A stretch of 64,000 bases of DNA from Eubacteriales bacterium (GTDB lineage: Bacteria; Bacillota; Clostridia; Oscillospirales; CAG-272): contig JAZOLL010000030.1 of the NCBI GenBank assembly GCA_045653105.1, forward strand, positions 536 to 64,535, in the 5' to 3' direction. The position numbers were made by a program, and so were the translations under genes. The notes below the pieces were generated by a model, which made no database searches, was not told the origin of the DNA, and saw only the letters and a list, made by a program, of their open reading frames with translations. Below, in pieces: positions 550 through 1,145 of the stretch; position 1 is the stretch's first letter; the number at the start of each line of letters is the position of its first letter.

Positions 550-571
550 GGCTGAATAATTATTAGAAAAA

Positions 572-606
572 GGCTCTCCGCGAGTTTTGCGGAGAGCCTT
601 TTGTTT
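572..606 (+). terminator. Rho-independent terminator after tkt
   Basis: GGCTCTCCGC (572-581) / GCGGAGAGCC (589-598) stem, 7 nt loop, then TTTTGTTT. Confidence 0.85.
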
Positions 607-619
607 CGGGCTTTTTTCG

Positions 620-983
620 AGTTTTCCACAGGCATTTTCGGCATTTGTGGAAAACTTTAAAGCGCGGCAAAAACAAAGCTTTGGGAATAAAAATCCGAAA
701 AAACGGATTTTTACCCAAAAGTGTTCATTTCCACCACTTTGAACAAAAAAGTGCCCATTTTTTGGCAAAATGAATTATTTTTTTGATGATTTTATGCAAA
801 ATAGACATCTTCGGGATTTTTCGACAGGCCTGTGCAAAACTGTGGAAAAAGCTGTGGAAACTGTGGAAAACTCAAAAAAGCTTGTGTTTGCAAGGGTTTG
901 CGCAAAGTGGGGCTGTGGAAAACTTTTCATAAAAATCTGTCAAGTGGAAAAACGCAAAAAGGCGATTTTCTACCTTATGCACA
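620..983. promoter_or_regulatory. Cluster of DnaA-box-like 9-mers and an iterated 11-mer TGTGGAAAACT in a non-coding region
   Basis: Matches to TTATNCACA or its complement with 0-1 mismatch at 622-630, 646-654, 792-800, 831-839, 841-849, 862-870, 914-922 and 975-983 (TTATGCACA, exact). Two-mismatch copies at 853-861 and 943-951. The 11-mer TGTGGAAAACT occurs at 646, 862 and 914, and inverted at 620-630. Confidence 0.6.
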
Positions 984-1116
984 AAGGCGGAAAAATTGCA
1001 AAAATTTCAGTTCTTTTTTGGAATTAAAATCGCCGTTTCGGCATAAACTTTTAACAGCGAAAAAATCGGAAAAAGATACCGCCTCAAAAAACTTTTAAAG
1101 AAAAACAAAAAAATGC

Positions 1117-1145
1117 TTGACATAAAAAAACAGGTGTGGTATAAT
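1117..1145 (+). promoter_or_regulatory. SigA-type promoter of the tRNA pair
   Basis: TTGACA (1117-1122), 17 nt spacer, TGG-TATAAT (-10 at 1140-1145), about 40 nt upstream of tRNA-Leu. Confidence 0.85.

Follow-up and report, generated by a model that had tools for sequence, protein, structure and literature searches.

Why does a gene-free region of the chromosome of an uncultured gut bacterium of the Clostridia, apart from the replication origin, carry DnaA boxes more densely than any other part of the genome? The region lies near the left end of the window, by which we mean the whole stretch of 64,000 nucleotides analyzed here (contig C30:536-64535). It stems from a metagenome-assembled genome (MAG) of the order Oscillospirales, designated G000, which comprises 1.43 Mb in 69 contigs, is about 80% complete, and has a GC content of 47%; other G numbers denote relatives, and box coordinates are positions in the window. 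An earlier note on this DNA had proposed either a DnaA titration or regulatory site or an iteron array for a different protein. The former proposal is favored by the occurrence of the same boxes at the origin, the rank of the cluster as the densest in the genome, its conservation in the genus, and an unflipped GC skew around it in the relative G003. We consider it highly probable that positions 620-985 represent an extra-origin DnaA-box cluster (DBC), which would make DnaA less available or less active, for instance by sequestering it. Binding of DnaA at this module and the consequence of such binding are inferred from the sequence only.

A dense and ordered cluster of DnaA boxes

Boxes were scored against TTATNCACA or against TT(A/T)TNCACA (TTWTNCACA), which we take to be the Schaper-Messer form of the DnaA-box consensus, and matches with one mismatch were counted separately. 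Between positions 622 and 983, 14 boxes are found in 362 bp, seven of them perfect matches to TTWTNCACA (622, 646, 831, 841, 862, 914, and 975) and seven with one mismatch (682, 709, 792, 793, 818, 853, and 943). The variant TTTTCCACA occurs at 622 on the plus strand and at 646, 841, 862, and 914 on the minus strand; the boxes at 831, 792, and 975 read TTTTGCACA, TTATGCAAA, and TTATGCACA, respectively. Those at 853 (GTTTCCACA) and 943 (TTTTCCACT) differ from TTATNCACA at two positions and from TT(A/T)TNCACA at one. All ten boxes listed in the earlier note (622, 646, 792, 831, 841, 862, 914, and 975, plus the weaker 853 and 943) are present.

The enrichment anticipated there was found on a genome-wide scale. 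The assembly contains 134 perfect TTWTNCACA boxes, and the densest 400-bp window elsewhere holds two, compared with seven in the cluster; the Poisson expectation for 400-bp windows of this kind is about 3e-8 per genome. With one-mismatch matches included, 0.94 boxes are expected per 400 bp, and the cluster, with its 14 boxes in 362 bp, ranks first in the genome. Matches to TTATNCACA with at most one mismatch occur at 0.95 per kb genome-wide. When the clade's own motif is used, the cluster described here ranks first in the genome, with eight occurrences, followed by the dnaA-dnaN spacer, with five. The 11-mer TGTGGAAAACT, in which four of the boxes are embedded, occurs only six times in the assembly, four of these inside the cluster, and the module is present in a single copy per genome. 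It is therefore not a dispersed REP-like repeat, a possibility that the earlier note had raised against its own proposal. The second-densest cluster of one-mismatch boxes, at C42:1-450, was dismissed as accidental, its repeat being a different one (TTTTGTACA). This AT-rich DNA upstream of a gene for a secreted protein carries at least five copies of TTTTGTACA, possibly the operator array of another regulator.

The boxes are arranged in a definite order. At the left end, a convergent perfect pair, AGTTTTCCACA and TGTGGAAAACT, is separated by 15 nt (620-656), forming the inverted repeat 620-630/646-656 that had been noted before; an equivalent pair with a spacer of 15-16 nt is located about 200 bp upstream of the core triple in G041, G004, G003, and G049. 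It is followed by two weak one-mismatch boxes, TTATTCCCA at 682 on the minus strand and TTTTACCCA at 709 on the plus strand (682-717), which are unconserved among relatives, and by the one-mismatch box TTATGCAAA (792-800, plus strand), which is kept in the closest relatives G003, G004, and G049. A facing pair, TTTTCGACA-ggcc-TGTGCAAAA, occupies 818-839. Its second box heads the head-to-tail run from 831, with spacings of 10, 12, and 9, which was likewise confirmed, and TGTGCAAAAC precedes the triple in the same manner in G209 and G332. The core triple itself, TGTGGAAAA-agc-TGTGGAAA-c-TGTGGAAAAC, extends over 841-871 on the minus strand, with head-to-tail box starts at 0, +12, and +21.

To the right of the triple lie a single extended box, gcTGTGGAAAACTTTT (also given as CCTGTGGAAAACTTTT; 912-927, minus strand), and the 7-mer TGTCAAG (938-944), which is not a DnaA box and is invariant in 19 of 20 aligned species. 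The overlapping one-mismatch box at 943-951 on the minus strand is specific to G000, where it replaces the T6-G-A6 tract usual in its relatives. The right boundary of the module is formed by an opposed pair at 965-983 (plus strand), consisting of the degenerate box TTTTCTACC and the perfect box TTATGCACA, with ATTTTCCACgTTTTGCACA as the genus consensus of this pair. The triple, the extended box, TGTCAAG, and the two opposed boxes make up a core module of about 200 bp. As to the iterons for a different protein suggested earlier, this is unlikely for the boxes and possible for TGTCAAG, whose invariance hints at a second factor. A promoter within the module was considered and rejected: the reverse complement of TGTCAAG contains TTGACA, but on neither strand did any of the aligned species show a usable -10 element at a distance of 16-18 nt. 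Resemblances of TGTCAAG, T6-G-A6, or AAAATCAAG to Spo0A, Rex, CodY, or IHF sites are only partial and are not claimed here. The better reading of TGTCGAA (820-826) is that it belongs to the box TTTTCGACA.

A conserved module with changing neighbors

Of the 71 other species of the genus, 18 yielded the core in a BLAST search with positions 600-1000. In an alignment of 20 species, the module reads cTGTGGAAAActCTGTgGAAAcTGTGGAAAACc, about 45 nt, gcCTGTGGAAAACTTTT, about 8 nt, cTTGTCAAGt, T6-G-A6, and ATTTTCcACgTTTTGCACAA. The frequency of the majority base falls from 0.91 in the boxes and TGTCAAG to 0.64 in the spacers and to 0.49 beyond the module; values for the triple, the single extended box, and TGTCAAG are 0.93, 0.98, and 0.97, respectively. 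This pattern of kept boxes and free spacers suggests that selection acts on the sites. Position 4 of the boxes alternates between G and T (TGTGG or TGTTG), as it does at the origin. The conservation that the earlier note had asked about is also seen with a pattern for the right half alone, GAAAACT-N7-22-GTCAAG-N28-48-KCACA, which has a single hit per genome in 46 of the 72 congeneric species; its reversed control gave two hits. Since this number was reached despite MAG completeness of 55-98%, the module is probably near-universal in the genus. A few genomes contain two copies of the cassette or module (G356:C22:12247 and G356:C153:2148; G242:C13 and C16; G086:C94 and C228), and in G356 one copy is located between tsaD and rex and the other elsewhere. 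Such double copies may be relocation intermediates or the result of mixed bins.

In G000, the non-coding region is bounded on the left by the gene for the C-terminal subunit of transketolase (open reading frame [ORF] 1-549, ending at 549; Pfam Transketolase_C) and its intrinsic terminator (569-603, plus strand), a perfect 14-nt inverted repeat (568-581/589-602) followed by a T-run. On the right, outside the conserved module, lies a tRNA promoter with an A-rich, UP-like tract (1085-1145, plus strand). The promoter at 1117-1145 is the consensus that the earlier note had recognized, a perfect sigma-70 TTGACA-17-TATAAT with a TG extension and matches at 12 of 12 positions; similar stretches are present elsewhere in G000 and in relatives. 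Its A-rich part (1085-1116) is missing from relatives without adjacent tRNAs and, rather than being an unwinding element, most plausibly represents the UP-like A-tract that accompanies a strong promoter of stable RNA. The promoter is followed on the plus strand by the genes for tRNA-Leu(UAA) (1187-1275) and initiator tRNA-Met(CAU) (1301-1378) and a terminator (1383-1408); direct reading of the sequence showed that this tRNA-Met has C1:A72 and, in its anticodon stem, GGG/CCC, as initiators do. The interval from the transketolase terminator to the tRNA promoter holds no credible gene. The predicted ORFs 770-1027, 832-1098, and 775-930 (minus strand) have no Pfam match, and the first two, already suspected to be artefacts, have no family match, show unconserved frames, and contain indels among relatives. 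A structured RNA or riboswitch was also rejected: Rfam searches of this part of the window returned only the tRNAs, and the consensus folding energy is close to zero on both strands (z = -1.35 and 0.14).

Does the module then serve the tRNA operon? The earlier note had envisaged a link between DnaA and initiator-tRNA transcription, and DnaA-dependent control of this operon or of another neighbor, coupling stable-RNA synthesis to replication, would have precedents in Bacillus subtilis, where DnaA acts as a transcription factor at the DBCs of sda, ywlC, and yydA (PMC2533591). The module does precede the same tRNA-Leu/tRNA-fMet operon in G000, G041, and G004. However, these are only three of the 20 species examined, which leaves DnaA control of the initiator tRNA unsupported, and the distance is variable. 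The last box ends 133 bp before the -35 element in G000 and about 220 bp before it in G004, so that all boxes lie clear of the promoter, on its upstream side. The flanking genes differ from species to species and include tkt, tRNA genes, rluA, a flavin reductase gene, rpe, gatC, a shikimate kinase gene, cysE, and others, and the architecture is unchanged beside these unrelated genes, in either orientation. Taken together, we regard regulation of a neighboring gene as decidedly unlikely.

The location in G000 is in fact derived and not the commonest one in the genus. The order tkt, module, tRNA-Leu-tRNA-fMet is found only in G000 and G041; G003 retains only tkt, and G004 only the tRNAs. Among the loci examined, the most frequent context is flavin reductase, module, rluA-X-murA (rluA in seven of 20). 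G000 possesses rluA-X-murA on contig C4 with a short, box-free upstream spacer, and therefore the module changed place in this lineage. Its rigid architecture, genus-wide occurrence in single copy, and freedom from any fixed neighbor point to a function of the DNA element itself. It is this combination that takes the module beyond a routine homolog of known clusters.

Beyond the terminator of the tRNA-fMet gene, at 1430-1620, the anticodon arm of this tRNA recurs in inverted orientation (gggttatgagcccgacg) and part of its T arm in direct orientation (gtgaggttcaa); both look like remnants of tRNA-targeted integration or recombination. With tRNA genes being common integration sites, these scrambled fragments might be taken as a sign that the cluster consists of iterons recognized by another protein than DnaA or that it is the origin of a mobile replicon integrated beside the tRNA gene. 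However, the repeats are identical to boxes of the chromosomal origin, the element is single-copy, genus-wide, and mostly located away from tRNA genes, and no gene for a Rep protein, integrase, or transposase adjoins it at the loci examined. An origin of this kind for the cluster is extremely improbable.

The chromosomal origin and DnaA of the genus

The earlier note had held the cluster unlikely to be oriC, with neither dnaA nor dnaN nearby, and indeed both genes are located on another contig, C60. The 500-bp dnaA-dnaN spacer of G000 contains TTTTCCACA twice, TTGTCCACA, and several TTATCAACA/TTGTCAACA boxes. Toward its end follow a box pair, a short run of GC, TAx triplets, and, immediately ahead of dnaN, a long AT-rich run. 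The same layout was found in five other genomes of the genus or family. The cluster was rejected as a candidate for oriC: it has no trios or AT-rich unit beside its boxes, the unwinding unit lies before dnaN, and G003, in which the module is placed in the middle of a 114-kb contig with 50-60 kb on each side, shows no GC-skew reversal there.

The spacers also reveal which boxes the origin employs. In six dnaA-dnaN spacers, taken from this genus and a sister genus, the TGT(G/T)-words found most often are TGTGGAAAA (12 occurrences), TGTTGAAAA (nine), and TGTTGATAA (six), and inside the module these words interchange between species. The origin therefore uses the same box variants as the cluster and not a clearly different box, which would have spoken against the earlier proposal. 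Like the module, oriC of the genus has head-to-tail triples, such as TGTTGATAAacTGTTGATATccTGTGG in G000. Unlike the module, in which the triple is spaced 12/9 and an unwinding unit is lacking, oriC has a triple spaced 11/11 together with such a unit.

Firmicutes usually possess a box cluster between rpmH and dnaA, upstream of the latter. In this group, rpmH is not the upstream neighbor of dnaA, and in the 500 bp upstream of dnaA examined in G000 (C60:31003-31500, L001), G003, G041, G004, G084, and G209, a perfect box was found only in G084 (one box), the other five genomes having none. As this region is unlike the classical rpmH-dnaA cluster, the group may lack dnaA autoregulation or a bipartite origin, or may have another arrangement of them. 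Could the module be the missing half, an oriC1-type cluster that was parted from dnaA and still takes part in initiation? In the four species in which module and dnaA share a contig, which are the better-assembled ones, the module is located on the dnaA-upstream side, at distances of 7.4 kb (G023), 12.6 kb (G011), 14 kb (G042), and 23 kb (G019), and in G023 it is separated from dnaA by no more than a giant gene and a small ORF. The giant gene (L234, G023:C20, 3198-8888) encodes a repeat-rich, membrane-anchored surface protein of 1,897 residues. In G011 and G042, however, about ten housekeeping genes (rluA, murA, thrS, and others) separate the two, and in G000 and G041 the module is on a different contig, tens of kilobases away from dnaA. 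Moreover, in known bipartite origins the halves lie within about 1-2 kb of each other (PMC3479198). A displaced origin half is thus very improbable.

Several observations weigh against a DBC at 620-985. TGTCAAG is not explained by DnaA. The A-value of Ishikawa, for which the affinities of four successive boxes are added up and divided by the mean spacing between them, is 0.171 for the cluster, which is the genome maximum and below the mark of 0.3 that serves as the cut-off in B. subtilis. This index transfers poorly, because it weights TTATCCACA fourfold and TTTTCCACA lowest and was calibrated on B. subtilis; G000's own oriC scores 0.047. On contig C30, the skew stays negative all the way from 2 kb to the distal end, and the minus strand carries 30 of the 48 genes, so that in G000 replication forks probably run toward the cluster from an oriC at least 65 kb away; this map position was derived from skew on a fragmented assembly. 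On C60, the GC skew changes from about -0.1 to about 0 at dnaA, a weak shift that agrees with an origin there, and gene orientation on the far side of dnaA was uninformative, so the origin is placed mainly by sequence features. Finally, three of six base-contact residues of G000 DnaA (L001:967-2421, minus strand) appear substituted relative to the proteins of E. coli and B. subtilis (R399K, T435S, and H439S, according to our alignment-based mapping onto Escherichia coli numbering, with the contact list from PMC2533591), which makes its exact specificity uncertain. In G023, the recognition helix of DnaA reads RDYAT instead of RDHTT. Despite these substitutions, the boxes remain TGTGGAAAA genus-wide.

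The triple in the order and known DnaA control loci

The exact triple pattern is not confined to the genus. In the public genome collection, at least 119 species contain it, almost all of them labeled Oscillospiraceae, Ruminococcaceae, Acutalibacteraceae, or unnamed Clostridia, among them Gemmiger, Subdoligranulum, Faecousia, Intestinimonas, and Oscillibacter. Among 401 high-quality genomes of the order, 34, from 23 of 184 genera, contain the triple, usually once per genome, with no hit for the reversed control. The search preset the 12/9 spacing, and it shows recurrence of this arrangement while saying nothing against others. The triple follows the gene for an acyl-ACP thioesterase at 19 loci, precedes sigG at 15 and mnmE at six, and is associated with tsaD at ten loci, at nine of them after tsaD and at five followed by rex; dnaA was found within the examined 8 kb at only three of 80 triple loci. 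The B. subtilis names of tsaD and mnmE are gcp and thdF, respectively.

At the sigG loci, in 15 species of Oscillospiraceae (L056, L058, L067, L078, L117-L119, L121, L123, L128, L155, L165, L170, and L171), the triple and boxes such as gagTTATCAACAgg are located 90-370 bp upstream of this sporulation sigma factor gene. By analogy, this array may link DnaA to sporulation in a manner comparable to B. subtilis sda.

Three genomes of the same family, G209, G332, and G356, have the array in the tsaD-rex spacer. The array of G209 and G332, TGTGCAAAAcTGTGGAAAAnnnTGTGGAAAcTGTGGAAAActc, equals the four-box array of the window, and in G356 the triple is without the leading TGTGCAAAA box; in G209, the array is 58 kb from dnaA. 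We considered whether the module is the tsaD-rex cluster of its own genus and rejected this, with none or one box in the 450 bp before rex in 30 of 30 species. The tsaD-rex spacer of the genus is mostly shorter than 100 bp, and that of G000 measures a few tens of base pairs and is box-free. In G000, tsaD and rex form an operon with genes for a DnaB_2/DnaD-like and a DnaI-like protein (IstB/DnaC-type AAA+) at C33:12600-16300 (L002, L204). In the sister genera, the array is directly upstream of rex and hence of the helicase-loader genes.

The closest known counterparts are found in B. subtilis, in which eight regions with 4-12 sites bind DnaA cooperatively (PMC4447404). The DBCs described are [gcp-ydiF], [thdF-jag], [yydA-yycS], [ywlC-ywlB], [ywcI-vpr], and [yqeG-sda] (PMC2533591, PMC3245932, PMC4447404), and conservation of the one after gcp among bacilli had already been reported (PMC2533591). 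Initiation occurred early when all six extra-origin DBCs were deleted, and one origin-proximal copy was enough to restore control (PMC3245932). Origin-distal copies were less effective in B. subtilis. Like these DBCs, the module is a gene-free DnaA-box cluster of a Firmicute that is set apart from oriC, kept among relatives, and usually origin-proximal, at 7-23 kb from dnaA in four congeners. The array that sister genera carry directly after tsaD corresponds in position to DBC[gcp-ydiF], and the triple upstream of mnmE in other families of the order to DBC[thdF-jag]. Unlike the B. subtilis DBCs, the module consists of TTTTCCACA/TTTTCAACA boxes and not TTATCCACA, remains below the A-value threshold, and combines a rigid layout and an invariant non-box 7-mer with a shifting neighborhood. 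It also belongs to an uncultured clostridial host, is known from sequence, and in G000 is probably not origin-proximal.

Following this comparison, we propose that DnaA, probably DnaA-ATP, would cooperatively occupy the closely spaced head-to-tail boxes and the opposed terminal boxes and form a stable multimer of roughly 8-12 protomers on gene-free DNA. In this way, DnaA would be sequestered at the locus, or would become less available or less active by other means, and untimely re-initiation at oriC would be restrained, as has been proposed for the origin-proximal DBCs of B. subtilis.

The rigid geometry of the module, with its 0/+12/+21 triple, fixed single box, opposed terminal pair, and invariant non-box element, and the recurrence of the triple across families also invite a comparison with datA, DARS1, and DARS2 of E. 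coli. These are likewise non-coding loci with few precisely arranged DnaA boxes, and they act on DnaA itself, not on a neighboring gene, through an additional site for an accessory DNA-binding protein. In datA and DARS, boxes are joined with IHF or Fis sites, and the opposed boxes are essential in DARS (PMC6868365). The module could accordingly be imagined as a dedicated DnaA nucleotide-state locus, promoting ATP hydrolysis as datA does or ADP release as DARS does, with a second protein at TGTCAAG/T6-G-A6. Unlike datA and DARS, however, it has no recognizable IHF or Fis sites and no sequence homology to them. The DARS layout is a three-box core in which boxes I and II are opposed with a 5-bp gap and II and III have the same direction; G000 has TTTTCGACA-4 bp-TGTGCAAAA followed by same-direction boxes. 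The essential opposed pair with the 5-bp gap is not general in the triple loci, and a DARS-like opposed box was rejected as a general feature, with one lying within 40 bp of the triple at only 14 of 109 loci. Furthermore, G000 itself is without the T6-G-A6 tract. We know of no nucleotide-state mechanisms in Firmicutes. DnaA in this phylum is thought to be controlled mainly via cooperativity factors and not by nucleotide-state loci (PMC4447404), and we consider such a locus quite unlikely. It is tempting to speculate more broadly that the module, rather than being a passive DnaA sink, is a self-contained, relocatable DnaA control locus with a partner at TGTCAAG/T6-G-A6, a clostridial functional counterpart of datA-IHF or DARS2-IHF/Fis. 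The 0/+12/+21 triple would then be its core throughout the order and would have been employed again downstream of tsaD, upstream of mnmE and sigG, and at other places. This idea, drawn by analogy, is an unlikely one, and we retain the extra-origin DBC as our explanation.

To our knowledge, the control of replication initiation is almost unstudied in strictly anaerobic gut Clostridia, and these bacteria are without the SeqA, Hda, and datA systems of E. coli. The module offers a defined, conserved element of 200-360 bp that is amenable to direct work with purified DnaA, and the 12/9-spaced triple box provides a simple, order-wide signature for finding such loci in genomes and MAGs. Clusters of this kind can also mislead origin predictors based on box density in MAGs, the cluster described here being denser than the true origin. 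The tsaD-rex site of the sister genera, which matches DBC[gcp-ydiF], suggests that some extra-origin DnaA sites may predate the split between Bacilli and Clostridia. Such an age, if true, would argue that these sites matter to the bacteria that keep them, though single deletions in B. subtilis show little phenotype.

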